From Rhodobiaceae bacterium (GTDB lineage: Bacteria; Pseudomonadota; Alphaproteobacteria; Rhizobiales; TMED25), in assembly GCA_018651345.1 (NCBI GenBank), contig JABIEF010000057.1, positions 8,178 through 72,177 of the forward strand: a stretch of DNA of 64,000 nucleotides, written 5' to 3'. The notes beneath the pieces were generated by a model that was not told where the DNA came from, did not search any database, and saw only the letters and a list, made by a program, of their open reading frames with translations. Positions 36,201 through 62,589 of the stretch are shown here, piece by piece (position 1 is the stretch's first letter; each line of letters starts with the position of its first letter). Both the position numbers and the translations under genes were made by a program.

Positions 36201-36421
36201 AAAAAACTTTCTAACAATATTATTTGGTACTCTTTGGATTTTAATTATATATACTTATATGGATACTTTATTTTGTAGTTCTTATTTTAATAGAGATTAA
36301 TCTTGTTGAAATATATACATATTATATATTTTTATATATAGAAATATATAATATCTTGTTAAATGTATATATTTTTAAAATTAAAATAGTAATGATTTAA
36401 TTTAAATTTTTGGGGTTTAAG

Positions 36422-37918
36422 ATGTTTGATACTTTATCCGATAGACTCTCAGATATATTTTCAAAACTTACGAAAAGAGGATACCTCTCTGAAGAGAATG
36501 TTGATGAAGCTCTAAAAGAGGTTAGAAGAGCTCTGATAGAAGCTGATGTAGCATTAATAGTTGTGAAGGATTTTCTTGATAAAGTCCGACAAAGAGCCGT
36601 TGGCCAAGAAGTCTTAAAGTCAGTATCACCTGCACAGTTGGTTATTAAAATAGTTAATGACACTTTAACTGATTTGTTGGGATCTGATGACTCATCTTTA
36701 AATCTAAAAGTCTCTCCCCCGTCAGTTATTATGATGGTTGGTCTCCAAGGTTCAGGTAAAACCACAACCTCAGCAAAAATAGCAAAGTTTATAAGAGATA
36801 AATATAAATTAAAAATTTTAATGGCATCCTTAGATGTTAAAAGACCTGCTGCACAGGAACAGTTAGAAATACTAGGTAGGCAGATTGGAATTGATACATT
36901 ACCTATTATAAAAGACCAAACCCCAGTTTCAATAGCTAAGAGGGCAATTGGAGCTGCTAAAGTTGGTGGCTACGATTCAGTAATACTTGATACAGCTGGA
37001 AGACTTCATGTTGACTCAGAGCTAATGAATGAAATGGAAATTATTAATTCAAATGTTACGGCTCATGAAATATTATTAGTAGCAGATTCTCTTACAGGGC
37101 AAGATGCTGTAAACGTAGCAAATTCATTCTCTGAAAAACTTCCTTTAACGGGGGTTATTTTAACAAGGCTTGATGGTGATTCACGAGGTGGAGCTGCACT
37201 TTCAATGAAAGCGATAACGGGAAAGCCTATTAAATTTATTGGTGTGGGAGAAAAGATAGGCGATATAGAAGAATTTTATCCAAGTCGTCTTGCAGGCAGA
37301 ATCCTTGGTATGGGCGATATAGTAAGTTTAGTTGAAAAGGCAAAAGAGACAATTGACACTGAGAAAGCTGAAAAAATTGCTAGTAAAATTGCTAAAGGAA
37401 TTTTTGATTTAGACGACATGTCAAGCCAATTACAGCAAATGTCAAAGATGGGGGGTATTAGTGGATTATTGGGGATGTTGCCAGGTATTGGTAAAATAAA
37501 AAAACAAATGGCAGAAGCTAACCTTGATGATTCTGTTGTAAAAAGACAAATTGCAATTATCTCTTCTATGACAAAAAAAGAGAGAAGGTCTCCAAAGATA
37601 TTAAATGCATCACGCAAGAAAAGGATTGCAAAGGGATCGGGCTCGGGTGTTCCAGAAGTCAACAAATTGGTGAAATTACATAGACAAACTTCAGACATGA
37701 TGAAAAAATTTGGTAAAAGAGGTATGCTTAATGATAATTTCGGTGTAGGAATGTCAGAGGATAATGCTAATTCATTAGATAAGCCATTAAATTTAACAGA
37801 TAATATGCTGGCTGAAATTGGAAAATCAACTACAAAAGGTCTTCCAGGCTTGCCCGGTCTTTCTGATAATAAAAATAAATTATCAGGATTATTAAATTTA
37901 ACTGGACGAAAAAAATGA
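36422..37918 (+). CDS. ffh: signal recognition particle protein Ffh
   Basis: MFDTLSDRLSDIF start (ATG at 36422; the track TTG at 36410 is less likely). GLQGSGKTTT, DTAGR and a Met-rich M domain. Has a C-terminal extension. Confidence 0.96.
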   Translation: MFDTLSDRLSDIFSKLTKRGYLSEENVDEALKEVRRALIEADVALIVVKDFLDKVRQRAVGQEVLKSVSPAQLVIKIVNDTLTDLLGSDDSSLNLKVSPPSVIMMVGLQGSGKTTTSAKIAKFIRDKYKLKILMASLDVKRPAAQEQLEILGRQIGIDTLPIIKDQTPVSIAKRAIGAAKVGGYDSVILDTAGRLHVDSELMNEMEIINSNVTAHEILLVADSLTGQDAVNVANSFSEKLPLTGVILTRLDGDSRGGAALSMKAITGKPIKFIGVGEKIGDIEEFYPSRLAGRILGMGDIVSLVEKAKETIDTEKAEKIASKIAKGIFDLDDMSSQLQQMSKMGGISGLLGMLPGIGKIKKQMAEANLDDSVVKRQIAIISSMTKKERRSPKILNASRKKRIAKGSGSGVPEVNKLVKLHRQTSDMMKKFGKRGMLNDNFGVGMSEDNANSLDKPLNLTDNMLAEIGKSTTKGLPGLPGLSDNKNKLSGLLNLTGRKK

Positions 37919-39742: not shown

Positions 39743-40873
39743 ATGAACGAGAGAAAACAAATTGGCTTAGCTGTCATTGGATGTGGCGTTGTAGGGAGAA
39801 TGCGTTCAACATTCGCAAAAGATTATCCAGGGATTGGTTGGATAGGACTTGCAGATATTAATGAAGACCTAGGTAAGAAATTAAAAGATGATATTGAGGC
39901 TGATTATTTCACTTCGGATTTTGCTGAGCTCATAGCTAGACCAGAAGTTGATGCTGTAATTGTTGCCACATCTACCTGGAGTCATGTTGACCCTATATTA
40001 GCTGCCGTGGAAAGAAAATTGCCAATGTTAATCGAAAAGCCATTAGCAACTGATGCCGTTCAATCGGCAATGGTTTTGAAAGCAATTGAAGATGCTGGCG
40101 TTGATGCTGTTGTTGGTTATACACAAAGGTTTAGAAGACGATTTTTAGTTGTTAAAGAAAGAATTCAGACAGGACACATAGGTGAAGCAACGGCAGTTGT
40201 GGTTCGTGCTTTTATGAATCAGATGGCGCCAACTGGTGAACTTAGACTTACCCAAGATAGAAGGCATTTGACGCCTATGGTTGTTTCAGGAACACACAGT
40301 TTAGACATGGCAATGTGGATGCTTGGCGATCAAGCAAAACCTGTTTCTGTTTACGCAAAATCAACAGATAAAATTATGGGTGCAATGGGCACAAAAGATG
40401 CCACGTTTGGTGTTTTTACAATGGAAGACGGAACAATATTTAGTATGAATATTTGCTGGGCATTGCCAAAGGTATGGCCTGGTGCGGTTTATGGATTAGA
40501 AATTGGTGTTGTTGGCGACAAAGGTGTTATAGATATTGAAGATACTCATAGAGATGTCATTATAGCAAGTGAACTTAATCAAGGGCCAGCATACAGACCC
40601 GACGGATTAAAGATTGAAGCTAATAGAAATGTTGATTTTTTAACTAGTTTCCCCCCTGGTGATTTACATGATGGTGAATTGTGGGGGCCAATGAGAGAAG
40701 AAACAAACTCTTGGTTTGGAAGAATTTATCTTGGAAAAGAGACACCTCATGCTACGGCTGCCGAGGGTCACAGAAATCTTGTCTTAACAATGGCAATGGA
40801 TCTTTCTGCGAAAACTGGGAGAGAAATACAACTTCCTATTGATCCTGTGGAACTAATGAAGGGTTTAGCTTAA
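39743..40873 (+). CDS. Gfo/Idh/MocA family NAD(P)-dependent oxidoreductase
   Basis: 376 aa with N-terminal Rossmann motif IGLAVIGCGVVG and the EKP motif (LIEKPLA). Confidence 0.8.
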   Translation: MNERKQIGLAVIGCGVVGRMRSTFAKDYPGIGWIGLADINEDLGKKLKDDIEADYFTSDFAELIARPEVDAVIVATSTWSHVDPILAAVERKLPMLIEKPLATDAVQSAMVLKAIEDAGVDAVVGYTQRFRRRFLVVKERIQTGHIGEATAVVVRAFMNQMAPTGELRLTQDRRHLTPMVVSGTHSLDMAMWMLGDQAKPVSVYAKSTDKIMGAMGTKDATFGVFTMEDGTIFSMNICWALPKVWPGAVYGLEIGVVGDKGVIDIEDTHRDVIIASELNQGPAYRPDGLKIEANRNVDFLTSFPPGDLHDGELWGPMREETNSWFGRIYLGKETPHATAAEGHRNLVLTMAMDLSAKTGREIQLPIDPVELMKGLA

Positions 40874-40903: not shown

Positions 40904-41731
40904 ATGAAAAACATATTAGTTCCATTTGAATATATAGAAACTATGCCACATATACTTGATTGTGCTTTGACGATAGCATCCAAGTTTAGTTCGAGAATAC
41001 AGGGTGTTGCTCTGCAGCAAAGAATAGATACCTTCATCGCACAAGAGGGATCTATCATATTTGATGCTCATCACGATGATAGTCATAAAACAAAGGCTCA
41101 AGAGTTTGGATTAAAATTTGAAGAGCATATTAATTTAGCAAAAACAGAAAATAATTCATTGGTAGGAATTGATTGTAGGTGGTTAAGCCAGGAATTAAAA
41201 AATCAAAAATACTTAGGTGACATATCAAGGGTATTTGATCTAGTGGTAGTATCAAGGCCCTATCAAGAAATGCAAAGCGCAAGTTTAAGTTCAATTCAAA
41301 CTATATTATTCGATGGTGGTAGACCCGTCTTGTTAATTCCAACAAATAAAGAAGTTACTATTGGCATAAATGTTTTAATATCATGGAATTGCACTACAGA
41401 AAGTTCAAGAGCAGTTTTTGCTTCTCTACCAATATTAAAAAAAGCAAAGAAAGTAACTATATTAACTGTAGAAAAAGTTGTTACCGAGGGTCCGAGTGCT
41501 GAAGATGTAGCAGAGTTATTATTAACGCATAATATAAAAGCTAATACCGTAATGTTAAGTAGAGAAGATAATAAAATTGGTCCTGCAATAATTGAATACG
41601 GTAGATCTATTGATGCGGATCTAATAATTAAAGGCGCATACACGCAGAGTAGATTAAGAGAAATAATATTTGGTGGTGCCACAAGATATTTATTGTTAAA
41701 TTCAGAAATTCCAATTTTTCTTGTAAATTAA
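40904..41731 (+). CDS. tandem universal stress protein (UspA) domain protein
   Basis: 275 aa with two Usp-like halves. The C-terminal G..G......GS-type region reads IFGGATRYLL. Confidence 0.7.
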   Translation: MKNILVPFEYIETMPHILDCALTIASKFSSRIQGVALQQRIDTFIAQEGSIIFDAHHDDSHKTKAQEFGLKFEEHINLAKTENNSLVGIDCRWLSQELKNQKYLGDISRVFDLVVVSRPYQEMQSASLSSIQTILFDGGRPVLLIPTNKEVTIGINVLISWNCTTESSRAVFASLPILKKAKKVTILTVEKVVTEGPSAEDVAELLLTHNIKANTVMLSREDNKIGPAIIEYGRSIDADLIIKGAYTQSRLREIIFGGATRYLLLNSEIPIFLVN

Positions 41732-43383
41732 GAAGATTTATTTTTAAAATTCGCAATTAAACCAGCACTCGAACTATCTAAGTTATTATTCAGTAAGTTG
41801 GGTTCAGTGATTATTTCGTTTATTTCTTGGGCAAGTTTTTTGCCTAATTCAACGCCAAGTTGATCAAACGAATTAATATTCCAGATACACCCCATTACAA
41901 ACACCTTGTGTTCGAAGTATGCTATTAGCTTCCCTAATACTTTTGGAGTTAAAGAATCAAACATATATGTTGTAGATGGTTTATTGCCACTAACCTCCAT
42001 ATGTTTTGTAAGTTCATTAAGCTTTTCATTAGATAGAGATTTTTCTGACAACTCTTTTTCAATTATTTTCTTACTGCTCCCAAAAGCCATTGCTCTGCTC
42101 TGAGCTATGCAATTGGAAACAAGCAGATTATGATGGGTTTTAATCTTTGATCTTGTATTTTTTCCAATAAGAAAGTCGACTGGTATAACGTCTGTTCCTT
42201 GGTGCATTAATTGGAAGAAAGAATGTTGCACTTCTGTACCAGTGCCTCCCCATATAATTGGTGAAGTCTTGAGTATGGAGATACTATTATCCCACATCAG
42301 AGTTTTTCCATTGGACTCCATTTCAAGTTGTTGGAGATAACTCGGAAGTAAGGATAAGTGATGCTCATAAGGGACGACACAAGTTGTACTATAATTCATT
42401 ATATTGCGACGCCAGATCGCTATTAAGCCCATTAATATAGGTATATTTTTCTCAATAGGTTGGTTTAAGAAATGATCATCTGCTTCATTTGCGCCTTCAA
42501 GAATTTTTATAAATTTCTCAGTTCCAATTGCGATTGCAATAGGAAGCCCCATTGATGACCATAGAGAAAATCTTCCACCCACCCAGTCCCATATTTTAAA
42601 TATATTTTCTTCATTAATTCCAAAATCTTTTGCACCACTTAAACTATTAGTAATAGCTACAATGTGGTTTTTTATATTTTTAATCCCATTATCCCTTAGC
42701 CATTGGATTGCAGAATTGGCATTGATTAATGTATCATGTGTTGTGAATGATTTTGACGCAATGATTATCAATGTCGTTGTAGGAGATAAACTTTCAATGA
42801 CATCAGATAAATTAGAACCATCAAGGTTTGATATAAAATGAACATTTGGTCCATCGGCATCGGGAGACATTGCGTTGATAACCATTTTAGGGCCTAGGGA
42901 AGATCCGCCTACACCAATGTGAAGAATATCAGTATATTTTTTATCAGTAGAACTAAGATAAATTCCACTTCTTATGTTCTCTGCAAACAGAAGCATCCTA
43001 TTTCTTTCTGTCAGAACATCTTCTATTTTTTTCTTATCTGTATGCTCAGCTAATGGATTCTTTGGATTATACCTGAGTAACGTATGAAGGGCAGACTGCT
43101 CTTCAGTTATATTTATTTTTTCGCCGTTAAACAGTTTTCTAATGCTTTTTTTTATACCGATTGTTTTAATAAAATCAATCAAGTCTTCGAAGGATTTTTG
43201 ATCAATATTTTCTTTTGAAAAATCAAGAAGAAGGTCTTCTGTCATTATTGAAAATTTTTTAAATCTATCTTTGTCTTCCTCAAATAATTTTTTAAGGGAT
43301 TTCTTTTTTACACTTATGGCATTAGTGTTAATTTTCTCCCATAATATAGATATATCTTTTTTTTTATTCATATTTTTAAGCAA
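41728..43383 (-). CDS. pgi: glucose-6-phosphate isomerase
   Basis: 551 aa with GIGGSSLGP, the SKSFTT.DT-type motif and the LPSYLQQL.MESNGK signature. Confidence 0.95.
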   Translation of the reverse strand: MLKNMNKKKDISILWEKINTNAISVKKKSLKKLFEEDKDRFKKFSIMTEDLLLDFSKENIDQKSFEDLIDFIKTIGIKKSIRKLFNGEKINITEEQSALHTLLRYNPKNPLAEHTDKKKIEDVLTERNRMLLFAENIRSGIYLSSTDKKYTDILHIGVGGSSLGPKMVINAMSPDADGPNVHFISNLDGSNLSDVIESLSPTTTLIIIASKSFTTHDTLINANSAIQWLRDNGIKNIKNHIVAITNSLSGAKDFGINEENIFKIWDWVGGRFSLWSSMGLPIAIAIGTEKFIKILEGANEADDHFLNQPIEKNIPILMGLIAIWRRNIMNYSTTCVVPYEHHLSLLPSYLQQLEMESNGKTLMWDNSISILKTSPIIWGGTGTEVQHSFFQLMHQGTDVIPVDFLIGKNTRSKIKTHHNLLVSNCIAQSRAMAFGSSKKIIEKELSEKSLSNEKLNELTKHMEVSGNKPSTTYMFDSLTPKVLGKLIAYFEHKVFVMGCIWNINSFDQLGVELGKKLAQEINEIITEPNLLNNNLDSSSAGLIANFKNKSS

Positions 43384-43537: not shown

Positions 43538-44683
43538 ATGAGACCTGCGATTATTGCTATTGGGCAATCTGTATATACTCGTCATCCTGATGAGAATCAA
43601 AATACCAGAACATTAATGAGGGATGCTATAATATCTGCCATTAAGGATTCTGGGTTAAAATTATCAGATATTGACGGCCTTGCGATAACATCCTTTTCAA
43701 TTGCTCCAGATTCTGCGATTGATATTGCTTGGAGGCTTGGATTATCATTAAAATGGTTGCTGCAAGATAGCAATGGCGGGTCTTCTGCAATGAATATGTT
43801 AGGTCATGCTTCTAGAGCAATAGAAACTAATGCTGCTTCAAACATAATTATTGTTGCTGGGGATGCCACTGGCCTATCTGGCTACGCAAAAATTGCAAAT
43901 TCATACAATACAGCTACTAGAGACCATCTATCTCCAATTGGTCACGGAGGGCCAAACGGTGTTTATGCATTGGTTACATCTAGGCAGATGAAGAAATATA
44001 ATATAGATAAAATTGATTATGGTAGAATGGCGGTAGCTCAAAGAAAATGGGCATCACTAAATCCTCATGCTGTCTACAAACATGAATTAACTATTGAAGA
44101 GTATATTGATGCCCCGATGGTTGCAGACCCTCTAGCTAGATATGACTGTGTTCCAGTTGTAGCGGGGTCTTATGCCTTAATTATAAGCAGTGAAGATAAT
44201 TGTCCTATAGATAGAAAACCAGTATTTATAAAATCCTTTATGCAAAGCTTTAACTTTGATAACCAAGAAGGCGATGGAACAAACACCGGTATATCTTCAT
44301 TTGCCAATAAAATGTGGGAAGAAACAAAAATGTCTCCAGATGATATTGATGTACTTAGTATATATGACGACTACCCTGCTATGGTAATAGCACAATTGAA
44401 TGATTTAAAAATGATACCAAATGAAGATGTTAAAAGTTTTTTGAACAATGAAATAATGCTAAAAAATAAACCAATAAATACTTGGGGGGGCATGTTATCT
44501 GCAGGACAACCTGGTGGACCAGCAGGAGGACTAAATGGGATCGGAGAAGTTGTTCAGCAGTTACAAGGGAGAGCTGGGAAAAGGCAAGTTAGAAATGCAA
44601 AATATGGAATTGTTACAGGATATGGAATGACACTATACAGGTATGGCGGAACCGCAGCGGCAGCTATTTTAGAGGTAGAATAA
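43538..44683 (+). CDS. thiolase-fold (SCP2-thiolase-like) protein lacking the canonical catalytic residues
   Basis: 381 aa, colinear with SCP2-type thiolases. The nucleophile loop reads NGGSSAMN (no Cys), the HDCF loop reads YDDY (276-279), and GHP reads GQP (Q324). The conserved tail QLQGRAGKRQV is retained. Confidence 0.75.
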   Translation: MRPAIIAIGQSVYTRHPDENQNTRTLMRDAIISAIKDSGLKLSDIDGLAITSFSIAPDSAIDIAWRLGLSLKWLLQDSNGGSSAMNMLGHASRAIETNAASNIIIVAGDATGLSGYAKIANSYNTATRDHLSPIGHGGPNGVYALVTSRQMKKYNIDKIDYGRMAVAQRKWASLNPHAVYKHELTIEEYIDAPMVADPLARYDCVPVVAGSYALIISSEDNCPIDRKPVFIKSFMQSFNFDNQEGDGTNTGISSFANKMWEETKMSPDDIDVLSIYDDYPAMVIAQLNDLKMIPNEDVKSFLNNEIMLKNKPINTWGGMLSAGQPGGPAGGLNGIGEVVQQLQGRAGKRQVRNAKYGIVTGYGMTLYRYGGTAAAAILEVE

Positions 44684-44684
44684 T

Positions 44685-44987
44685 ATGGACATTCTTCAAG
44701 TTTACAAATGTGTAAAGTGCTCAAAAGAAACATTCCCTCAAAAATTAATTTGTAATAATTGTGGATCAATAGATTTTATAATGATTAATAGTGAACATGC
44801 GATTGTTGAAGAGACTTCTATTATTAGGCATATGTTAGGCAGTAAAGATTGGAAGCCAAGAAAAATTGGAAGTGTTCGAACTAATAAAGGCGTGCTTTTA
44901 ACCGTAGGTTTATCAGATGAAGTTGTATCGGGAGATAAAATAATTTTATTTCAAAAAGACGGAGCAATACTAGGTCGTAAAGAATAA
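44685..44987 (+). CDS. DUF35 family zinc-ribbon/OB-fold protein
   Basis: 100 aa with a four-Cys ribbon (CVKC...CNNC) followed by a short OB-like domain. It starts 1 nt after the thiolase-like stop. Confidence 0.8.
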   Translation: MDILQVYKCVKCSKETFPQKLICNNCGSIDFIMINSEHAIVEETSIIRHMLGSKDWKPRKIGSVRTNKGVLLTVGLSDEVVSGDKIILFQKDGAILGRKE

Positions 44988-45014
44988 GAATTTTTTATAA
45001 TAAGGATTAAAGAG

Positions 45015-46646
45015 ATGTTAACATGTCAATACATAGCAAAGTTTCTAAAAAATAGAGGAGTTAAACAGGTTTTTGGCACACCTGGAAGCGATACTATAAA
45101 CCTTATTAATGCTTTTTCTGAAGAGGGGATAAGATATATACTTACTCACCATGAAAATACAGCGGCATATATGGCTTCTACTTACGGGGAGATCATCGGT
45201 ATTCCCGGTGTTGTAATTGTAACAAAAGGACCAGGAGTGACTAATATTACTTCAGGTATTGCAGCTGCCTATCTTGACAGAAGACCTATAATTGTTTTTT
45301 CTGCAATATTAGACCCAGAGCTTCTTGCAAGAAATCCTCATCAAGAAGTTGCTTTAGTTCCATTCTGTGGTTTAATTTCAAAATTATCAGAAGAAATTAC
45401 TTCAGAGAATGTTGTTGAATTGATTGAACGCGCATATTCCTTGTCATTAGAGTCAAGACCTGGTGCTGTTTATCTGCCTATATCTCCTGTACAGTCTGTT
45501 GCGGAGATCAATATGAGCGATGACGAAGCCATAGAAATTATAAATAAAACAGTTTCTATTAAAGATACATTGGTTCCAGATATATCGGTTGCATTAGAAT
45601 TAATATCTAAGGCAAAAAGACCACTTACTTTAGTTGGAGTCAGTGTGGTTGGTACTAACACCTCAAAGGAAGCTGTTGCCTTTATTGAAAAATTGCAATC
45701 ACCAGCATGTGTAACATTGCAAGCAGTAGGTCAAATACCTTGCGATAATAAGTATTATATGGGCATGTACGGTTGGTTTGGAACCCCAATAGACAAAATG
45801 ATGAAAGAAGCTGATTTAATTATCACGGTTGGGTTGGATGGATGGGATATTATAAGGCCATTTAAATCAGAAGTTCCAATACTTAGCATAGATTCTGTTG
45901 ATGCAAATGACAGAACCTTCCAGCCGGTTACAAATGGATTGGTAGGAGATATTGGCAAAATATTATCATCATTATGCAATGGAATAAAAGATGATCGAGA
46001 TCTAGAATGGGGTGCAGACGAGGCACATTCTTGTTACGATAGAATTCATAATTATGAATTGACTGTTAGCAAAGAACATTCAGAGGTTAATGGAATTGCC
46101 CCTCAAGATGTATATAAAGAAATTAGGAAAATAACACCAAAAGATACTATTATAGCAGCCGATGCAGGTGCACATAAATCATTGGCTTCTCAGGCTTGGG
46201 AATCGTATGGTCCTAAAGGTTATTTTGTTTCAAATGGGTTGTCACCAATGGGCTTTTCTATTGGTGCTGCGATGGGGGCAAAATTAGCCGAACCTGATAA
46301 GGTTGTTATATCTTTTGTTGGTGATGGTGGTTTTTTAATGTATGCAGGTGAATTGGCCACTTGGGCAAGATTGAATATTCCTATGATCCAAGTAGTGATG
46401 GTTGATCATTCTCTGACGCAGGTTAAATCGAAACAAGAAAAGCAAGGATTTAATACAGAAGCCACAAGTTTCCAGGCAATAGATTATTGTGCTATCGCAA
46501 GAAGCATGGGAATACATGGAGTAAGCGTTAATAATAAGGCTGCTCTTAGAAAAGCTGTTCTCGACGCTATCGATAAAAATATACCTACAACAATTGAAGT
46601 TATATTAGATGGTGATGAGTATTTGAGGATGCCAAGTGCAGTATAG
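45015..46646 (+). CDS. thiamine diphosphate-dependent enzyme (acetolactate synthase large subunit-like)
   Basis: 543 aa. The PYR domain has the catalytic Glu (HHENTAAYMA). The PP domain has GDGGF-x-...-VMVDHS, meaning the usual NN after GDG-x25 reads DH. Confidence 0.8.
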   Translation: MLTCQYIAKFLKNRGVKQVFGTPGSDTINLINAFSEEGIRYILTHHENTAAYMASTYGEIIGIPGVVIVTKGPGVTNITSGIAAAYLDRRPIIVFSAILDPELLARNPHQEVALVPFCGLISKLSEEITSENVVELIERAYSLSLESRPGAVYLPISPVQSVAEINMSDDEAIEIINKTVSIKDTLVPDISVALELISKAKRPLTLVGVSVVGTNTSKEAVAFIEKLQSPACVTLQAVGQIPCDNKYYMGMYGWFGTPIDKMMKEADLIITVGLDGWDIIRPFKSEVPILSIDSVDANDRTFQPVTNGLVGDIGKILSSLCNGIKDDRDLEWGADEAHSCYDRIHNYELTVSKEHSEVNGIAPQDVYKEIRKITPKDTIIAADAGAHKSLASQAWESYGPKGYFVSNGLSPMGFSIGAAMGAKLAEPDKVVISFVGDGGFLMYAGELATWARLNIPMIQVVMVDHSLTQVKSKQEKQGFNTEATSFQAIDYCAIARSMGIHGVSVNNKAALRKAVLDAIDKNIPTTIEVILDGDEYLRMPSAV

Positions 46647-46650
46647 GATG

Positions 46651-47673
46651 TTATCCGATAACCTCATCATTTTTAGAAGCTTCCCCATAAACTTCAGGGT
46701 TTAAGACATCAAAAGGTCTCTTTCCTTTGAGAAATCTCTCTATATTATGCACAGCTCTCAGCGCCATTTCATCTCTTGTTTCCCTTGCTGCTGATCCTAT
46801 GTGGGGAGTCATCACAACATTTTCTAGATCGAATAATCCTTTCCTAGGGCCTGGGTCTGATTCAGGGACCTCTCTATGAAAAACATCTAATCCTGCTCCC
46901 AATATAACTTTCTCTTTCAGTGCATTTTCTAGGGCTTCTTCATCAACTATTGGCCCACGTGATGTATTAATAAGTATCGAAGTTGGTTTCATTAATTCAA
47001 TTAGATCCTTGCCTACAAGTCCTTTAGTATCATTTGTAAGTGAAGTGCATAGCACGACAAAATCTGCTTCCATGAAGAGATCTTCAATTGCCCTATATTC
47101 GGCGTCACCAAGCATATATTCTTCAGCAGCACTTAATCGTGTTCTTTTGTGATATATTATATTCATATCACAAGCAGCAGCTTTTTTTGCTACCCCAGAT
47201 CCAACGGCACCCATCCCTACAATTCCAATTGTTTTGCCATAAAGCCTAGATCCTAAGAAAGATGTAGATTGATTTTGTGTCCATTTTCCATTCTTTAAAT
47301 ATTCATGTGCTTCTGGAAGTCTCCAAGCTGTTGACATAAGTAGCGCGAAGGTAAATTCAGCTGTTGTTTTGCTAACAAAATTTGGTATACCACAAAGTGG
47401 TACCTTTCTTTCTGTACAAGCATTTTTATCAACAAACGTAGCTTTCATATGCATTGCGGAAACTAATTTAAGTGGTGCTGATTCCATTATTACTTCTCTG
47501 TCAAACTCAATTTCACCCAGTGCAAAGAGAATATCTTTATCTTTTACTTGCTTTAATATTTCATCATGAGGCATAGGTCCATCTGTACCTGTATACATTG
47601 TTACCTCACCAATTGTTTTTAGTTTCTCAACGGCTATTGAAGAAATCTCTTGAGGGATGAATATTTTTGTCAT
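46651..47673 (-). CDS. D-isomer-specific 2-hydroxyacid dehydrogenase (glyoxylate/hydroxypyruvate reductase-like)
   Basis: 340 aa with GIVGMGAVG and the Arg/Glu/His catalytic set (TSRGPIVDE ... TPHIGSA). Confidence 0.85.
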   Translation of the reverse strand: MTKIFIPQEISSIAVEKLKTIGEVTMYTGTDGPMPHDEILKQVKDKDILFALGEIEFDREVIMESAPLKLVSAMHMKATFVDKNACTERKVPLCGIPNFVSKTTAEFTFALLMSTAWRLPEAHEYLKNGKWTQNQSTSFLGSRLYGKTIGIVGMGAVGSGVAKKAAACDMNIIYHKRTRLSAAEEYMLGDAEYRAIEDLFMEADFVVLCTSLTNDTKGLVGKDLIELMKPTSILINTSRGPIVDEEALENALKEKVILGAGLDVFHREVPESDPGPRKGLFDLENVVMTPHIGSAARETRDEMALRAVHNIERFLKGKRPFDVLNPEVYGEASKNDEVIG

Positions 47674-47813: not shown

Positions 47814-48419
47814 ATGAGTCAATTAGATAAGAATTTAGGACAAAAAACTGTGGTGCCATTGCTTAAAGATGATGAATTCAGCCCAGAATTCATGGTAATG
47901 GTTAGAAGGTTAAAAGAAGCAAAATCAAGTAAGATTAACCGAATTAATAATAGTGCACGTGCGATGGCTCATGCCGATGAATTTGGAATGGCCACTAGAA
48001 ATTATCTCCAGTCTACATGGGATCTTGGGGATCTCTCGAAACCCTTTAAGGCTTTAATTAGGTTTAAAGTAGCAACAACAAATACATGTTTCTATTGCTC
48101 TACACATCAAATAGAACATTTAAGAAGGCTTGGTTGCGATGAAAATAAGATTAAAAATATACAATCATATTTAACTGATGATTCATTCACAGCATCTGAG
48201 AAAGCAGCCTTAGCATTTGTAGACCATATGATGACTGACGCATCCAATATACCAGACAATGTAGTAGAAGATTTCCAGGAACATTATAGCCCGAAGGAAC
48301 GTATAGAAATTGCTTTAACGGCAACAGCAATGAGTGTTCTAAATAAATTTAATGATGCATTTAGAATTCCGATTGAAGATGAAGTGATTGGTATTGGAAT
48401 CGATGTTCCTAAATTATAA
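47814..48419 (+). CDS. AhpD-like/carboxymuconolactone decarboxylase family protein with a CxxC motif
   Basis: 201 aa with CFYCSTH (C-x2-C-x2-H) in a helical CMD-type core. Confidence 0.65.
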   Translation: MSQLDKNLGQKTVVPLLKDDEFSPEFMVMVRRLKEAKSSKINRINNSARAMAHADEFGMATRNYLQSTWDLGDLSKPFKALIRFKVATTNTCFYCSTHQIEHLRRLGCDENKIKNIQSYLTDDSFTASEKAALAFVDHMMTDASNIPDNVVEDFQEHYSPKERIEIALTATAMSVLNKFNDAFRIPIEDEVIGIGIDVPKL

Positions 48420-48440: not shown

Positions 48441-48480
48441 AGAATGGACACAGAATACGATTTCTGTGTCCATTCTTTTA
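48441..48480. terminator. bidirectional rho-independent terminator between convergent genes
   Basis: A perfect 15-bp inverted repeat: AGAATGGACACAGAA (48441-48455), loop TACGAT, TTCTGTGTCCATTCT (48462-48476). It is followed by TTTT. Confidence 0.8.
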
Positions 48481-48482
48481 AA

Positions 48483-49457
48483 TTATAGCTTTAGCAATCT
48501 TGTTGCATTTCCACTAAGTATTTTTAGCTTATCTTCTTTACAAAGAGGCACTCTTTCAATCCAATCAACGCCTGGTTTATTGTCAATAAAAGGCCAGTCT
48601 ACTGCAAAGAGAACTCTATCAATACCAAGCTCTTGAACGCAACACATTAAAGCAGGATCTGAGAAATTTCCACTTGTTGTTACATAAAAATTATTACAGA
48701 AAACGTCTCTAAACTCTATAGGCGCATTCCCAGGTCTTTTTAGATTGTGGTTTACTCTCCAAAGTAAAAATGGGAGAGTCTCGCCTAAATGACCAAGGAT
48801 TATTTTTAGATTTGGATGTTTTTCAAAAACTCTTGATAGAACTAATCTAATGGCCATTGTTGCAGTTTCAACTGTATACCCCCAAGCTGCTTGCGGAAAT
48901 AAAGCGAATTCCTCTGTATATTCTTTATAATAAATATCTCTTACTTCAGCATGAGGCATTCCTGGATGCAAATAAATTGGTACATCAAGTGCAGCAGCTC
49001 GTTCGTACACAGCCCAAGATGCTTTAGTATCATCGAACTTACTATTTGTAAGCCCATGAATCATGCCACCTTTGAAACCTAATTTAGTGACAGATCTTTC
49101 AAGTTCATCGGCAGCTTCTGCTGGATTTTGCATTGGCAAAGCCGCAAATCCAAAAAATCTTTTAGGATTTGTTGCAATTTTTTGTGCAAGGTAGTCGTTT
49201 GCATCTTTTGCCACTTTAACTGCAAGTTCGTCGCTAAAGTTATGCACGCCAGGAGGTGCTATAGATAATACTTGGACGTCAATTCCAGCGGCATCCATTT
49301 CTTCAATTCTTTCTCCTCCAAAATCTTCCATCCTTTCAACCATCTTAGGATTTCTAATTCTTGCATTTTTTTGCATACTCTCTTGGAGTTTAGTGACATT
49401 TGGATCTATATAATGTTCTTCTATTGCAATAACTCTTGAGTTCTTAATGAGTGACAT
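48483..49457 (-). CDS. amidohydrolase-2 family non-oxidative decarboxylase (gamma-resorcylate / 5-carboxyvanillate decarboxylase-like)
   Basis: 324 aa, colinear with gamma-resorcylate decarboxylase as I recall it: IAIEEH, FAALP, LGFKG, PIYLHP, ILGHLGETLPFLLWR, TTSGNF, DRVLFAVDWPF. Confidence 0.75.
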   Translation of the reverse strand: MSLIKNSRVIAIEEHYIDPNVTKLQESMQKNARIRNPKMVERMEDFGGERIEEMDAAGIDVQVLSIAPPGVHNFSDELAVKVAKDANDYLAQKIATNPKRFFGFAALPMQNPAEAADELERSVTKLGFKGGMIHGLTNSKFDDTKASWAVYERAAALDVPIYLHPGMPHAEVRDIYYKEYTEEFALFPQAAWGYTVETATMAIRLVLSRVFEKHPNLKIILGHLGETLPFLLWRVNHNLKRPGNAPIEFRDVFCNNFYVTTSGNFSDPALMCCVQELGIDRVLFAVDWPFIDNKPGVDWIERVPLCKEDKLKILSGNATRLLKL

Positions 49458-55649: not shown

Positions 55650-56849
55650 ATGGAAGAAATGTTTATTCAAAATGATGAACAAAGAGCAATCTTAGAAACA
55701 GTAGCCCGTTTTGTAGAGGATGTGGTTAAACCAAAATCTGCTGATCTAGATGCTATGAAAGATCCCGCAGATGGATATAGCAACGAAATAGTAGAAGCCG
55801 CTGATGCAATCGGATTAAGAACGATGACTTTATCTGAAAAATATGGTGGTTTAGAGCTTGATTCAGTAACAACAGCTATGGTTGTTGAAGAGCTTGCTGT
55901 TGGTGATGTCGGTGTTTCTGTTACTATGGCACAGACAATGAAATTAGCGACAATTATGGAAAAAGCATTAAATGAAGAACAATCTGAGAGAGTTTTGGTC
56001 CCATTTTCAGAGGATCCAAGAGGAGTTCTTGCTATTGGTATAACGGAGCCAGATAATGCCTCGAATTATTTTCTTCCATATCCAACTCCTTTTAGAACAT
56101 CTGCTGAAAAAGTAGACGGTGGTTATGTTATTAACGGAATGAAACATTTTATATCAAATGGAAATCGAGCAAGTTTTTATCTGCTGTTTGTTCAAACTAC
56201 AAAAGGTAAAGCAATGCTAGAAGGCACTACTTGTTTTCTGTTAGAAAGAGGTCGTGAAGGTTTTACTATCGGAAGAGTTCACGATAAAATGGGCGAAAGA
56301 ACTGCAAATAATGCTGAATTAATTTTTCAAGATTGCTTTGTTCCTGATGCCAACGTAGTTGGTGAAGTTGGCAAAGGTTTCCCTTTATTGCAGAAATTTT
56401 TTCCATCGAGTAATTCATTTGCTGCAGCAAGTTGCCTTGGCGTAGGTGTTGCGCTGTTTGATAAAGCTGAACAATGGGCTAAAATTAGAGTTCAAGGTGG
56501 TAAACCGTTAATCGAACACGGAAGTATCAGGGCACAATTAGCTGAGATGAAAATGCTACTCGACGCATCAAGATGCTATACGCATAGAGCGTGTTATTTA
56601 GCAGATAATCAAGATGAGGGTTGGGATCCAACGCTCGGAGCTCTTCCAAAAGCAATGGCGAGTCAGGCTGTATGGAAAATAGCGACCTGGACAATGGAAA
56701 TTCATGGTGGACATGGCTATATGAAAGAATTTGGCGTCGAAAGATTACTCAGAGATGCTGCTGGGTGGTTGCATTCTGATGGGGTTAATAGAACTTTATT
56801 TTTAAAAGCCGCAAATATGATGTACGACAGTAATATTTATGGAAAATAG
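55650..56849 (+). CDS. acyl-CoA dehydrogenase family flavoprotein (atypical catalytic-base motif)
   Basis: 399 aa ACAD fold (GITEPDNASN, KHFISNG, ERLLRDA). The usual YEGT motif reads HSDGV (D377). Confidence 0.8.
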   Translation: MEEMFIQNDEQRAILETVARFVEDVVKPKSADLDAMKDPADGYSNEIVEAADAIGLRTMTLSEKYGGLELDSVTTAMVVEELAVGDVGVSVTMAQTMKLATIMEKALNEEQSERVLVPFSEDPRGVLAIGITEPDNASNYFLPYPTPFRTSAEKVDGGYVINGMKHFISNGNRASFYLLFVQTTKGKAMLEGTTCFLLERGREGFTIGRVHDKMGERTANNAELIFQDCFVPDANVVGEVGKGFPLLQKFFPSSNSFAAASCLGVGVALFDKAEQWAKIRVQGGKPLIEHGSIRAQLAEMKMLLDASRCYTHRACYLADNQDEGWDPTLGALPKAMASQAVWKIATWTMEIHGGHGYMKEFGVERLLRDAAGWLHSDGVNRTLFLKAANMMYDSNIYGK

Positions 56850-58683: not shown

Positions 58684-59796
58684 ATGATGGAAATTATTGT
58701 ATGCAATAAATCAATGGATAGGATATTTAATATGGAAAGTAAAGATCCGAAGATAGTAGCGGCTGTGAGTCATTGGTCTTATAGGTTTGTGTCAAATGGA
58801 ATACATTTATCTGATTTTAATGATGTAGCAAATAGCGTATCTGTATGGGATGATTGGTGTCCTGCATGGGAAGAAAAAGGTAGAATGCATGCAGAATTAG
58901 CAGAAAAATCTATCTCTTCAGATTTTTTGTTAAGTGCTGGAGCACATTATAATACTGCTGCTGTGTGCTGTCATTTTGGTAAATTTTTATTTGTGCATGA
59001 TGAAGAAGTCATGAAGAAAACCCATAAACTTGCTGTTGAATATCACCGGAAATCTTTGAAATTACAAAATCCTATGGCAGAGAGAGTTACAATAGATTGG
59101 GATGGATTAGAAATGATTGGTAACTTAAGAAAACCAAGTAACATTTTAAACCCACCGATCGTTATAATGGTTATGGGATTAGATTCTGCTAAAGAAGAAA
59201 TGGAAACAAACGAGAGAGTCTTCCTTGATAGAGGAATGGCAACATTATCATTTGACGGACCGGGTCAGGGTGAATCAGAGTATACTTCAATAATATGTCC
59301 AGAATATGAAAAGCCCGTTACTGCTGTAATTGATTTTATAGAAAAAAGAGATGACCTAGATTCATCCCGAATAGGTGTTTGGGGTGTTAGTTTGGGTGGG
59401 TATTATGCGCCACGCGCTGCAGCTTTTGATGATAGAATTAAGGCCTGCATATCTTTAACTGGTCCATTTAACTGGAATAATATTTTTGATTTAATTCCAG
59501 AATTAACAAAAGATGCTTTTATGAAAAGAAGTAATACTAAAAATGAAAAAGAAGCCAGGGAATTCGCAAGTCGAATGGATCTTAGCAATTGTGCGTCTAA
59601 TATAAAATGTCCATTATATATTGTTGGCGGTGGATTAGATAGAGTGGTTCCTCCCGATGAGTCCAAGCTTCTTGCTGAAGCAGCAAAAGGTGAGGTAACT
59701 TATAACATGATTGAAGATGCAACACATGTTGCAAATAACAGAATTTATAAATATAGAACTCAAACCGCTGATTGGATGTCAGCAAAATTAAAATAG
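58684..59796 (+). CDS. alpha/beta hydrolase (FrsA/DUF1100-like; 2,6-dihydropseudooxynicotine hydrolase-like)
   Basis: 370 aa with the nucleophile elbow GVSLGG and a C-terminal His (DATHV). The start codon is ambiguous among several ATGs between 58684 and 58732. The subfamily assignment is from memory. Confidence 0.65.
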   Translation: MMEIIVCNKSMDRIFNMESKDPKIVAAVSHWSYRFVSNGIHLSDFNDVANSVSVWDDWCPAWEEKGRMHAELAEKSISSDFLLSAGAHYNTAAVCCHFGKFLFVHDEEVMKKTHKLAVEYHRKSLKLQNPMAERVTIDWDGLEMIGNLRKPSNILNPPIVIMVMGLDSAKEEMETNERVFLDRGMATLSFDGPGQGESEYTSIICPEYEKPVTAVIDFIEKRDDLDSSRIGVWGVSLGGYYAPRAAAFDDRIKACISLTGPFNWNNIFDLIPELTKDAFMKRSNTKNEKEAREFASRMDLSNCASNIKCPLYIVGGGLDRVVPPDESKLLAEAAKGEVTYNMIEDATHVANNRIYKYRTQTADWMSAKLK

Positions 59797-59810
59797 ATAA
59801 GGAGAAAAAT

Positions 59811-60782
59811 ATGATTGAAAAAAAAGTAACTAGACAAGATTTGGCTGATGCTGCTGACAAATATAAGAATTGGGGTAAGTGGGGTCCAGATGATGAGATT
59901 GGTACTCTAAATAACGTGACTGCAAATGATATAATTGAAGCAGCGCAACTTGTTAAAAAAGGAAAAGTGATATCACTTGCATTGAATTTTGATCATACAG
60001 GACCACAAGGTGCCAAGACTAAATATCCGTCAATGGGCAGGACTAACCCTATTCACTCTATGTTAAGAACGGGAACCGATGCTTATTCTGGTGTTCTTGA
60101 TAAACGAGGAATTAAAGCTGCGGATGATATGGTTATGTTACCAACGCATGGTGGAACTCATTGGGATGGATTAGGGCATGTATTTTATGAACATCACATG
60201 TGGAATGGATATGATTGTAGAGAAGTGACATCTGCTGGTGCACAAAAATGTGGTATTGAAAATACAAAAGATAAGATGGTTGGTAGGGGCGTTTTGTTAG
60301 ATGTTGCAAGGGCTTTAGGCAAGGATTTTCTTGAAGATGGCTATGCAATTACATGTGAAGATCTTGATCTTACAGCAGAAAAACAAGGTATCAAAATTAA
60401 TAAAGGTGATTTTGTTATAGTACGAACTGGGCAAATGGAAGAATGCCTTAGGAAAGGCAGTTGGGATGGTTACCCAGGTGGCGACGCACCTGGAATGGGC
60501 TTTGATACTCTTGAATGGATTCAAAAGACAGAATTAGCTGCTTTAGCAAGCGATACATGGGGTTGTGAAGTCCGGCCTAACCAAAGTGAAGATGGTATTA
60601 ATCAACCTTGGCACTGGATAACTATTCCTATTCAAGGCATGACAATGGGTGAAATATTCAATTTGAAGGAAATTGCAGAAGATTGTTTAGCTGACGGCGT
60701 TTATGAATTTTTATTTGTTGCCCCTTCAATACCGATTACAGGCGCAGTTGGTTCGCCAGTTAACCCAATAGCAATTAAATAA
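59811..60782 (+). CDS. putative cyclase family metal-dependent hydrolase (kynurenine formamidase/isatin hydrolase-like)
   Basis: HGGTHWDGLGH matches the H-x-G-T-H-x-D-x3-H cyclase-family motif. ATG at 59811 follows an AAGGAG RBS. The track TTG at 59772 lies inside the upstream gene. Confidence 0.75.
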   Translation: MIEKKVTRQDLADAADKYKNWGKWGPDDEIGTLNNVTANDIIEAAQLVKKGKVISLALNFDHTGPQGAKTKYPSMGRTNPIHSMLRTGTDAYSGVLDKRGIKAADDMVMLPTHGGTHWDGLGHVFYEHHMWNGYDCREVTSAGAQKCGIENTKDKMVGRGVLLDVARALGKDFLEDGYAITCEDLDLTAEKQGIKINKGDFVIVRTGQMEECLRKGSWDGYPGGDAPGMGFDTLEWIQKTELAALASDTWGCEVRPNQSEDGINQPWHWITIPIQGMTMGEIFNLKEIAEDCLADGVYEFLFVAPSIPITGAVGSPVNPIAIK

Positions 60783-60800
60783 TAAAGTAAGGATCTACAG

Positions 60801-62489: not shown

Positions 62490-62589
62490 TATTGCATAAC
62501 GGGAATTTCATGCTTATATGAACCTAACTAGTGTGTTATAATAAAAAACTTTTACATAAATATAGATATAAATCAGAAGTGAGATAGAT

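Follow-up and report, generated by a model that had tools for sequence, protein, structure and literature searches.

The sequence analyzed here is a 64,000-nucleotide stretch of a contig assigned to a Rhodobiaceae bacterium (JABIEF010000057.1, positions 8,178 to 72,177 of the forward strand; ‘the window’), which carries three consecutive genes for a thiolase-like protein, a small DUF35 protein and ThDP1, an enzyme of the acetolactate-synthase type that uses thiamine diphosphate (ThDP). The thiolase-like protein is almost certainly not a thiolase, because Gly81, Tyr276/Asp278 and Gln324 occupy the positions of the catalytic Cys, HDxF and GHP. It falls in a clade designated YDDY/GQ after two of its active-site motifs, and we lean slightly towards the view that it and the DUF35 protein form a complex that is an active acyl-coenzyme A (acyl-CoA) aldol lyase. 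That the product of this lyase feeds ThDP1 is a more tentative proposal, to which we give somewhat less than an even chance. The invariant unit is the two-gene pair of thiolase-like and DUF35 genes, while the three-gene operon is lineage-specific.

The window DNA is low in GC (about 33%) and its host is a marine alphaproteobacterium. A counterpart locus, its proteins 98% identical, is present in the metagenome-assembled genome (MAG) ‘uncultured Rhizobiales bacterium FRAM18_bin081’, and further relatives occur in OCS116-cluster, Rhodobiaceae and Hyphomicrobiales MAGs. The spacers are 1 nt between the thiolase-like and DUF35 genes and 27 nt between the DUF35 and ThDP1 genes; these distances and the gene positions given in a preliminary description of this DNA match the open reading frames (ORFs) exactly. 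A hairpin scan found no terminator-like structure between the three genes, and ThDP1 is probably co-transcribed with the pair. Rfam and tRNA scans returned nothing within or close to the operon, and a promoter scan gave fewer hits than in shuffled sequence of this AT-rich genome.

Pfam recognizes only the C-terminal domain of the thiolase-like protein (Thiolase_C_1 at 6e-25), and the NCBIfam models for thiolases and ‘lipid-transfer proteins’ score 40–180 bits against cut-offs of 400–750. The best sequence matches in the PDB are 9MYR (CtSal, 7e-32), 4U4E (an uncharacterised Sphaerobacter protein) and 6OK1 (TcLtp2, 1e-28), with genuine thiolases ranking behind them. An AlphaFold2 model built on 26 orthologues, with a predicted local distance difference test (pLDDT) value of 81 and a predicted template-modelling score (pTM) of 0.87, has the thiolase alpha-beta-alpha-beta-alpha fold and compares with thiolases at template-modelling (TM) scores of 0.76–0.84. 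A Foldseek search with the model returned 6OK1 first (3e-25), then 9MYR (TM 0.83) and the Trypanosoma brucei thiolase-like protein TbSLP, at TM scores of 0.79–0.83. Catalytic positions were fixed by HMMER alignment to the genuine Pyrococcus thiolase 7YVY, in which the nucleophilic Cys of C-x-S corresponds to Gly81, H-D-A-F to Y276-D277-D278-Y279 and G-H-P to G323-Q324-P325. The protein has two Cys residues, C204 and C222, and neither stands at a thiolase catalytic position; C204 is nonetheless invariant and lies inside a conserved D-C-V motif. The replacement of all three thiolase fingerprints, and the absence of a catalytic Cys, had been read by eye in the preliminary description, and the alignment upholds both: neither a Cys nor a His falls at any of these positions.

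These substitutions are neither chance nor decay, since they are near-invariant in the 184 orthologues that are 60–97% identical to the window protein. G81, N140 (of a GPN motif), C204, Y276, D277, D278, Y279 and Q324 are each kept in 181–184 of them, with G81 in 183, the four YDDY residues in 182–183 and Q324 in 181, and YDDY, GQ, GPN and DCV persist down to about 30% identity. The wider family is large: a word-indexed search gave 1,643 proteins at E ≤ 1e-10, and an exhaustive one gave 4,247 cluster representatives at E ≤ 0.001. Of 82 aligned full-length representatives, the most distant about 27% identical, 32 combine Y-D-D-x with G-Q; the others fall into groups with YDC+H, YDS+H, YDA+Y (Ltp2-like), YDG+R and YDC+Q (Sal-like). 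A neighbour-joining tree places the D-D sequences in one clade of 34 leaves, 33 of which are D-D while the remaining one resembles a frameshifted fragment; Sal, Ltp2 and 4U4E lie outside. The window protein fits the IadG-like YDDY/GQ clade by its Y-D-D-[YF] motif, the G-Q at the GHP position, the Gly at the nucleophile position and its place in the tree. Judged from sequence, YDDY/GQ thus appears to be a distinct, selected active-site type rather than a pseudoenzyme pattern, and no YDDY-type or non-steroid DUF35 aldolase was found described in the literature searched.

The partner gene required a profile for its identification. Alone, its product matches no Pfam domain and gives marginal matches only, a single sequence below threshold. 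A profile of 16 sequences, taken from ORFs extracted at related loci, matches PhlB (3.9e-8), the archaeal 6ESQ_E (1.6e-6), ChsH2-DUF35 (2.7e-5), BbsA and CtShy-DUF35, with alignments that cover the zinc ribbon and the OB fold (positions 8–90). Among the 16 members, Pfam finds zf-ChsH2 in all and OB_ChsH2_C in eight. The zinc-ribbon residues of the window protein are C9, C12, C23 and C26, and 82 of 85 thiolase-like genes are followed by an ORF of the C-x2-C-x10-C-x2-C type, with the 10-residue spacing in 81 of the 82. The product is a genuine, minimal DUF35 protein that lacks the N-terminal helix of the 130–145-residue forms, in keeping with the four-Cys zinc-ribbon/OB identity first proposed for it. 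Its proposed role as partner of the thiolase-fold protein likewise stands: the two genes are adjacent almost everywhere, and in P0123 and P0159 a YDDY thiolase-like domain is naturally fused to a C-terminal C4 ribbon/OB domain, so that adjacency and fusions indirectly support a complex of the two, as do the profile matches and a fused DUF35 encoded beside a relative in Ruegeria pomeroyi (see below).

We surveyed 80 genomic loci from GTDB representative genomes plus four metagenome loci, scoring neighbours by tblastn and de novo clustering. The marine set comprises 19 OCS116/Rhodobiaceae-type loci, window included, that are closely related to one another; the other 63 loci come mostly from soil Xanthobacteraceae, Pseudolabrys, Rhodoplanes and Devosia, plus the cultured Aquabacter spiritensis. 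A DUF35 gene lies downstream of the thiolase-like gene on the same strand in 83 of the 84 loci, and the exception ends at a contig edge. A ThDP1 orthologue (64–68% identity) comes straight after the pair in 19/19 marine loci, one of them cut by the contig end, and in locus L001 the spacer before it shrinks to 2 nt. There is no ThDP gene in the related marine type of L003, L007 and L015, where glyS comes after the pair, and an acetolactate synthase (ALS)-like gene lies within 10 kb of the pair in five of the 63 other loci. A 2-oxoacid:ferredoxin oxidoreductase, verified by Pfam, is found near the pair in 18 of these 63. The preliminary description had suggested a possible module of all three genes. 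Only in the marine OCS116/Rhodobiaceae lineage, however, is the pair directly followed by the ThDP gene, and together with L098, an 826-kb contig discussed below, the survey rules out a family-wide trio. The distant representatives P0128 and P0135 lie on contigs of about 1.5 kb, where only a partial downstream ORF is visible.

Genes for CoA activation have a different distribution. Within 10 kb of the pair, 52/63 non-marine loci (41 of the 45 full-length ones) encode an AMP-forming ligase or family III CoA-transferase, and a CoA ligase or transferase stands beside it in 11/11 of the plasmid or chromid contexts examined, which indicates CoA-ester substrates. In some soil loci (L023, L031, L075 and others) a block recurs some 7 kb upstream of the pair in the order IclR, BKACE (beta-keto acid cleavage enzyme), GMC oxidoreductase, ACMSD-type amidohydrolase, aldo/keto reductase and TctC, while a family III CoA-transferase and, in 16 loci, a CitE-like lyase lie downstream; this block resembles an enzyme set for lignin-derived C6-C3 acids. 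In 36 soil loci a Gfo/Idh/MocA gene unlike the one in the window is divergent from the pair. One contig, L014 (PAYI01000038.1, with protein P0297), carries a Flavobacteriaceae MAG label, yet has the OCS116/Rhodobiaceae gene order and proteins 66–68% identical, and is probably a mis-binned alphaproteobacterial sequence.

ThDP1 has the features of the acetolactate-synthase branch of ThDP enzymes: the PYR, middle and PP domains (Pfam TPP_enzyme_N, M and C), a catalytic Glu in HHENTAAYM and the GDG-X26-(N/D) metal motif. Its best PDB match is Bacillus subtilis AlsS (4e-57). With AlsS (4RJJ, 1OZF) it shares the three-domain fold, the Glu and a GDGGF...D motif, while identity is about 30% and ThDP1 stays below every NCBIfam equivalog cut-off (best PRK08322, 328 versus 509 bits; AlsS, 304 versus 510). 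The metal motif reads GDGGF...MVDH, with the Asp 27 residues past the GDG Asp and aligned with the Asp of the AlsS sequence W-N-D-S, which we take to be a Mg ligand in catabolic acetolactate synthase. The metal site is ordinary because of this alignment and because orthologues read MVDN where the window reads MVDH. An ending in DH had been noted before as the mark of an atypical enzyme; the letters are as described, whereas the aligned Asp and the VDN of the orthologues rule out an atypical site, and the site is normal for its branch.

The nearest genetically studied relatives of the pair belong to the degradation of the auxin indole-3-acetate by iad genes. A search of annotated plasmids and chromids found homologues, about 32% identical, in Ruegeria pomeroyi DSS-3, Paracoccus saliphilus, Sulfitobacter and Roseibium, where the genes run VanB-type reductase, Rieske alpha, Rieske beta, AMP-binding ligase, thiolase (YDDY), a protein of about 412 residues called ‘SDR’ (short-chain dehydrogenase), cyclase and SDR. 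We assign these loci to iad because their order matches the published iadC-D-E-F-G-H-I-J order and annotation (PMC12852158), and the MarR protein of R. pomeroyi has been treated as the IadR of an iad locus by Conway et al. (PMC9613470). The R. pomeroyi thiolase carries GG, GPN, DCV, YDDYP and GQ, and these motifs, YDDYP included, are present in 120/120 of its closest relatives among the matches listed; no Variovorax sequence is within the best 120 matches listed for this R. pomeroyi-seeded search. At the IadH position, the ‘SDR’ is a DUF35 protein (zf-ChsH2 plus OB_ChsH2_C) fused to a short-chain dehydrogenase (L089 10053–11291 on the R. pomeroyi DSS-3 megaplasmid, L092, L093 and L096), a composition not found noted in the iad literature searched. 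Each of iadF, iadG and iadH is required, and their loss makes C10H9NO4 accumulate; genetics and metabolomics put IadF (a CoA ligase), IadG and IadH at removal of the acetate side chain from an oxidised indole-3-acetate, and IadG was read from annotation alone as a ketothiolase (bioRxiv 10.1101/2025.10.25.684584). By the R. pomeroyi protein and the locus order, IadG would belong to the YDDY/GQ clade as its sole genetically studied member. Because it has no nucleophilic Cys and is of the Sal/Ltp2 lineage, we infer that it may be a retro-aldol lyase rather than a ketothiolase. It would then split the CoA ester of 3-hydroxy-oxindole-3-acetate into acetyl-CoA and an isatin-type ketone, which the DUF35-tethered SDR of IadH could reduce; such a route fits the chemistry and the mass balance.

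The window cluster itself is not an iad locus. No Rieske, reductase, AMP ligase, DUF35-SDR or cyclase gene flanks the pair, no ligase or Rieske homologue was found in the window, and a cyclase gene 15 kb from the pair is not IadI-like. Among cultured organisms, the closest homologues (45–47% identity) come from Rhodococcus erythropolis R138, Nonomuraea gerenzanensis, Caballeronia and Burkholderia. The Rhodococcus cluster begins with genes for a cyclase and a ThDP-binding protein, followed by those for an ABC transporter, the thiolase-like protein, a zinc-ribbon protein, an acyl-CoA ligase and an aldehyde dehydrogenase, and adjoins genes for 3-hydroxyanthranilate dioxygenase, an ACMSD-type amidohydrolase and RidA; Nonomuraea has an equivalent cyclase, ThDP and ligase set at 62–74% identity.

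Enzymes that handle 2-oxo acids recur near members of this family. The Rhodococcus ThDP protein must have been recruited independently, as it is only about 25% identical to ThDP1; orthology with ThDP1 is ruled out both for it and for a second ALS-like protein of the window, ThDP2 (23–26% identity). ThDP1-like genes (31% identical) occur in L026 and L075, in L040 and L056 a homologue of ThDP2 (50% identical) is encoded 3 kb away from the pair, 18 soil loci have the ferredoxin oxidoreductases noted above, and iadA/B encode an indolepyruvate:ferredoxin oxidoreductase in Variovorax (PMC12852158). Since distinct 2-oxoacid-handling ThDP enzymes have been recruited repeatedly, the pattern suggests that lyases of this family often release a 2-oxo acid or its precursor (e.g. 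isatin to isatinate). This repeated recruitment is the main, circumstantial argument for a functional coupling of ThDP1 to the pair. The preliminary description had called the gene combination unassignable to any described pathway; this holds only in part, since the pair lies in the clade of IadG/IadH and its association with ThDP/2-oxoacid enzymes is a recurring one.

A working model can be drawn from the two characterised aldolases of this fold. In Ltp2, Tyr294 of YDHF is the base and Tyr344 the acid, which bears out the earlier statement that Ltp2 lacks the thiolase Cys and uses tyrosines; in Sal, Tyr302 and Cys304 of YDCY act with the aid of Gln347 and Gln352, and a Gly sits at the old nucleophile position (PMC12329534). 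By analogy, the window pair would be a two-subunit C-C lyase with a thiolase-fold catalytic subunit and a zinc-ribbon/OB DUF35 subunit, working in the manner of Sal and Ltp2. Tyr276 (equivalent to Sal Tyr302 and Ltp2 Tyr294) would take the proton from the beta-hydroxyl of a 3-hydroxyacyl-CoA, and cleavage between C-alpha and C-beta would yield a carbonyl product together with an enolate, either that of acetyl-CoA or that of some other short acyl-CoA. Asp278, in place of Sal Cys304, would donate a proton to the enolate, and Gln324 (Sal Gln352) could help to polarise the active site. Tentatively, the carbonyl product may be a 2-oxo acid or a related alpha-dicarbonyl that ThDP1 would decarboxylate or ligate, and the Gfo/Idh/MocA dehydrogenase and the gamma-resorcylate-type decarboxylase encoded nearby may share one catabolic route, probably an aromatic one. 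Of the two options that had been offered for the module, retro-aldol chemistry is the best available reading, and an acyloin role of the thiolase-like protein is without support. The composite proposal is that YDDY/GQ is a third class of thiolase-fold C-C lyases (Tyr/Asp, versus Tyr/Cys in Sal and Tyr/Tyr in Ltp2), whose OCS116-type member is hard-wired to ThDP1 in a two-step route. The lyase would split a 3-hydroxyacyl thioester, tertiary or alpha-carboxy, and so release acetyl-CoA as well as a 2-oxo compound for decarboxylation or ligation. We regard this proposal as a whole as doubtful.

Several observations weigh against the coupled retro-aldol model. Asp278 sits at the position of the essential Cys304 of CtSal, where substitutions by Ala, Ser and His are dead (PMC12329534), so that Asp as general acid is a tentative idea. 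Sal Gln347 is matched by Met319 and the His of NTHGG by Trp316, the invariant Cys204 could have a role of its own, and the clade members are known from sequence and iad genetics, with the ‘ketothiolase’ IadG named by annotation only. No CoA ligase or transferase of the kinds counted above is present in the 19 marine loci or across the 64-kb window, which leaves two options for CoA-ester chemistry there: an activating gene in another part of the genome, or operation with acetyl-CoA in the condensing direction. The link to ThDP is confined to one lineage, the pair being without ThDP1 in L003, L007 and most soil loci, and 19/19 marine loci are few independent observations given their close kinship. 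Conversely, a 64%-identical ThDP1 orthologue on L098 has no neighbouring pair. It keeps 2-Hacid_dh, Gfo/Idh/MocA, Amidohydro_2 and typA genes nearby; the 2-Hacid_dh genes (L098 10647–12435) are broken up in the gene calls into several short pieces on either strand, which suggests frameshift errors of a long-read assembly, or pseudogenes.

L098 also speaks for the view that the pair is a real lyase and ThDP1 a mere neighbour whose function lies with the genes for the 2-hydroxyacid dehydrogenase, the CMD protein and the decarboxylase; the trio would then be a lineage-specific accident of gene order. The loci that have the pair without ThDP1 (L003, L007, L015 and 58 of the 63 others) agree with it, whereas the tight spacers (27 nt in the window, 2 nt in L001) with no terminator, and the independent recruitment of at least five unrelated kinds of ThDP/2-oxoacid enzymes near family members, speak for coupling; we consider the neighbour view rather less likely than not. 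The pair might instead run in the condensing direction, since aldol reactions are reversible: the enolate of acetyl-CoA would add to an aldehyde or ketone, possibly made from a 2-oxo acid by the ThDP enzyme, giving a 3-hydroxyacyl-CoA for beta-oxidation-type reactions. This would account for the absence of CoA-activating genes from 19/19 marine loci and for the syntenic acyl-CoA dehydrogenase, but the CoA ligases and transferases in other family contexts (52 of 63 non-marine loci) are typical of catabolic activation followed by cleavage, and cleavage is the direction of the characterised Sal and Ltp2 and of IadG, known from genetics, which makes condensation improbable.

Loss of every canonical catalytic residue is what a dead scaffold would show, and DUF35 proteins do serve as scaffolds in known complexes (PMC12329534). 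The thiolase-like protein could accordingly be a pseudoenzyme that, with DUF35, organises another enzyme, as DUF35 bridges archaeal thiolase and HMG-CoA synthase or PhlC and PhlA in PhlABC. Yet YDDY, GQ, GPN and DCV are invariant over 60–70% identity and kept to about 30%, the neighbourhood encodes no third subunit of the KAS III or HMGCS kind, and deletion of iadG blocks the iad pathway with accumulation of the substrate of side-chain removal (10.1101/2025.10.25.684584), so that a scaffold role is highly improbable. There is still less to recommend activity on phenolic or malonyl substrates, whether as a PhlC-like Friedel–Crafts acyltransferase or as a malonyl-CoA decarboxylase of the TbSLP kind, for which we see a very small chance: PhlB is the best DUF35 profile match, TbSLP and PhlC are among the fold matches and an aromatic-acid decarboxylase is a neighbour, but Gly81 takes the place of PhlC Cys88 and no PhlA-like subunit is present. 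PhlC-type enzymes presumably need this Cys at the nucleophile position, as the C88S entry 9SKM likewise implies. The decarboxylase activity of TbSLP is marginal and CtSal has none (PMC12329534). An ordinary acetyl-CoA acetyltransferase or SCP2-type thiolase, finally, has in its favor the names of homologues in JGI and NCBI (‘acetyl-CoA acetyltransferase’, ‘thiolase family protein’) and the fold itself. It is ruled out in practice by the alignment to 7YVY, with Gly for the nucleophilic Cys, Asp and Tyr for the acid/base residues, Gln for the GHP His and both Cys elsewhere, and by the sub-threshold NCBIfam scores; its probability is close to nil.

The retro-aldol reading would matter beyond this locus. 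The biochemically characterised thiolase-fold retro-aldolases are of two types, Sal and Ltp2, both from steroid catabolism, and YDDY/GQ points to a third, large and conserved type. Its members, which number in the hundreds to thousands, are spread over marine and soil Alphaproteobacteria, Burkholderiales and Actinobacteria, and their public annotation as acetyl-CoA acetyltransferases cannot hold. If such a third class is real, IadG of auxin catabolism is an aldolase and not a ketothiolase as annotated. IadG is a required step of the agriculturally relevant iad pathway with a chemistry inferred from annotation, for which an aldolase lineage gives a testable mechanism. For the OCS116 lineage, the analysis flags a conserved putative catabolic cluster in abundant, bloom-associated marine bacteria, and biocatalysis would gain a new scaffold in a CoA-dependent aldolase that relies on Asp.

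Table 1. Features of the window that make up or surround the putative lyase operon (positions are those of the window)
Feature	Position	Strand	Remarks
Gfo/Idh/MocA oxidoreductase	39743–40873	+	Pfam; 79–85% identical and syntenic in marine loci, above the conservation of the putative lyase
Usp-like protein	40904–41731	+	275 aa; weak Usp match; 64–66% identical
pgi	41728–43383	-	Between Usp-like and thiolase-like genes in the window, L003, L007 and L015
Thiolase-like gene	43538–44683	+	381 aa, TAA stop; Cys-less ‘YDDY/GQ’ thiolase-fold protein, putative acyl-CoA retro-aldol lyase (IadG/Sal/Ltp2 type)
DUF35 gene	44685–44987	+	100 aa, ATG start; stand-alone short DUF35 partner
ThDP1 gene	45015–46646	+	543 aa, ATG start; acetolactate-synthase-like ThDP enzyme
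D-2-hydroxyacid dehydrogenase	46651–47673	-	Pfam/NCBIfam; convergent with ThDP1; absent from L001-type loci; 2-Hacid_dh follows the ThDP1 orthologue in L098
CMD/AhpD-like protein	47814–48419	+	Pfam CMD; 68–76% identical, syntenic; directly after ThDP1 in L001-type loci
Amidohydrolase_2	48483–49457	-	Non-oxidative hydroxybenzoate decarboxylase type; 76–80% identical in marine loci
Acyl-CoA dehydrogenase	55650–56849		Syntenic
Alpha/beta-hydrolase	58684–59796		
Cyclase-family protein	59772–60782		PF04199; PDB 5IBZ at 2e-58
ThDP2, ALS-like	60801–62489		Canonical GDA...NN motif
M24/creatinase-like protein	62590–63888		Weak sub-threshold DddP match

The genes around the operon are listed in Table 1. 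In pgi-less loci of the L001 type, the Usp-like gene ends 7–19 nt before the thiolase-like gene, and the presence or absence of pgi reflects a lineage-specific insertion or loss, which splits what is probably one operon. The nearest solved relatives of the Gfo/Idh/MocA protein, DgpA, inositol dehydrogenases and PmdC, score only 51–82 bits. The CMD-like protein has the motif C-F-Y-C-S-T-H, typical of AhpD-like peroxidase-related proteins and not of 4-carboxymuconolactone decarboxylase, and the NCBIfam model that fits it best, that of a YciW-related (seleno)protein, scores below its cut-off. The Amidohydrolase_2 protein matches gamma-resorcylate, 5-carboxyvanillate and 2,3-dihydroxybenzoate decarboxylases at 1e-63 to 1e-52 (3S4T at 1e-63, 2DVT at 3e-61, LigW 4ICM at 3e-60) and has an E-E-H metal motif, which points to an aromatic acid in the route. 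It is not orthologous to the Amidohydro_2 proteins of the soil loci, since the marine ones have E-E-H (gamma-resorcylate decarboxylase type) and the soil ones H-x-H (ACMSD type). Between the convergent CMD-like and amidohydrolase genes lies a hairpin (48441–48476) with a 15-bp stem and T-rich flanks and tail, the strongest terminator-like site of the 10 kb scanned and likely the terminator that bounds the cluster. A second candidate catabolic block occupies positions 58684–63888 of the window. Three ORFs of 120–140 codons on the reverse strand (36397–36765, 37276–37698 and 41296–41682) are antisense to ffh and the Usp-like gene, have low-complexity translations and are almost certainly spurious.

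Among known systems, the archaeal thiolase/HMGCS/DUF35 complex 6ESQ, BbsAB (7PXP) and 7YVY share the fold and the kind of DUF35 partner, but they keep the Cys nucleophile and the His/Cys set, all of which are replaced in the window protein. The steroid C3 side-chain aldolase TcLtp2-ChsH2 (6OK1) is closer in being a Cys-less fold with a catalytic Tyr in Y-D-x-F and a C4 DUF35 partner. It differs in having YDHF and a Tyr344 in a short ‘GEAY’ loop where the window protein, 27% identical, has YDDY and a longer ‘SAGQPGG’ loop; of the Ltp2-type active site, the window protein thus has the first Tyr, with Asp for the His of YDHF and another loop in place of that of Tyr344. IpfD/IpfE of ibuprofen degradation (pIBU218) also combines a Cys-less thiolase-like protein with an OB-fold partner and adjoins Rieske dioxygenase and CoA ligase genes; the system has been proposed to release propionyl-CoA from a ring-hydroxylated acyl-CoA. 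IpfD is of the Ltp2 type (YDAF...GFY) and 28% identical, which rules it out as a YDDY member, and IpfE lacks the zinc-ribbon Cys residues. On this plasmid (L100 13229–14827, minus strand), IpfD is annotated as ‘hypothetical protein’, and a second set at L100 939–4557 encodes an Ltp2-like (YDHF) protein, an OB-fold protein, an enoyl-CoA hydratase and CaiB.

The best sequence match is CtSal-CtShy (9MYR), the bile-acid C5 side-chain aldolase of Comamonas testosteroni. The two share the thiolase fold, the Gly at the nucleophile position, the first Tyr of Y-D-x-Y (Sal Tyr302, window Tyr276), the Gln at the GHP position (Sal Gln352, window Gln324) and a DUF35 partner, which is obligate in Sal. At 29% identity they fall in separate clades, with Asp278 in the window protein for Sal Cys304 and Met319 for Sal Gln347. 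The DUF35 of Sal is the C-terminal domain of the MaoC hydratase Shy and binds zinc with a C3H1 set, whereas that of the window is a free C4 protein, and the window locus has no steroid genes. IadG/IadH (iad loci of Variovorax, Bradyrhizobium and R. pomeroyi), as represented by the R. pomeroyi proteins, share with the window pair the YDDY(P), GG(Q/M)LSxGQ, GPN and DCV motifs, membership of one clade and a DUF35 directly downstream. They differ in that identity is 32%, the iad DUF35 is fused to an SDR, and Rieske, CoA ligase and cyclase genes surround the iad genes but do not flank the window pair. The window pair belongs to an orthologous group distinct from that of IadG, 60–70% identical across Hyphomicrobiales.

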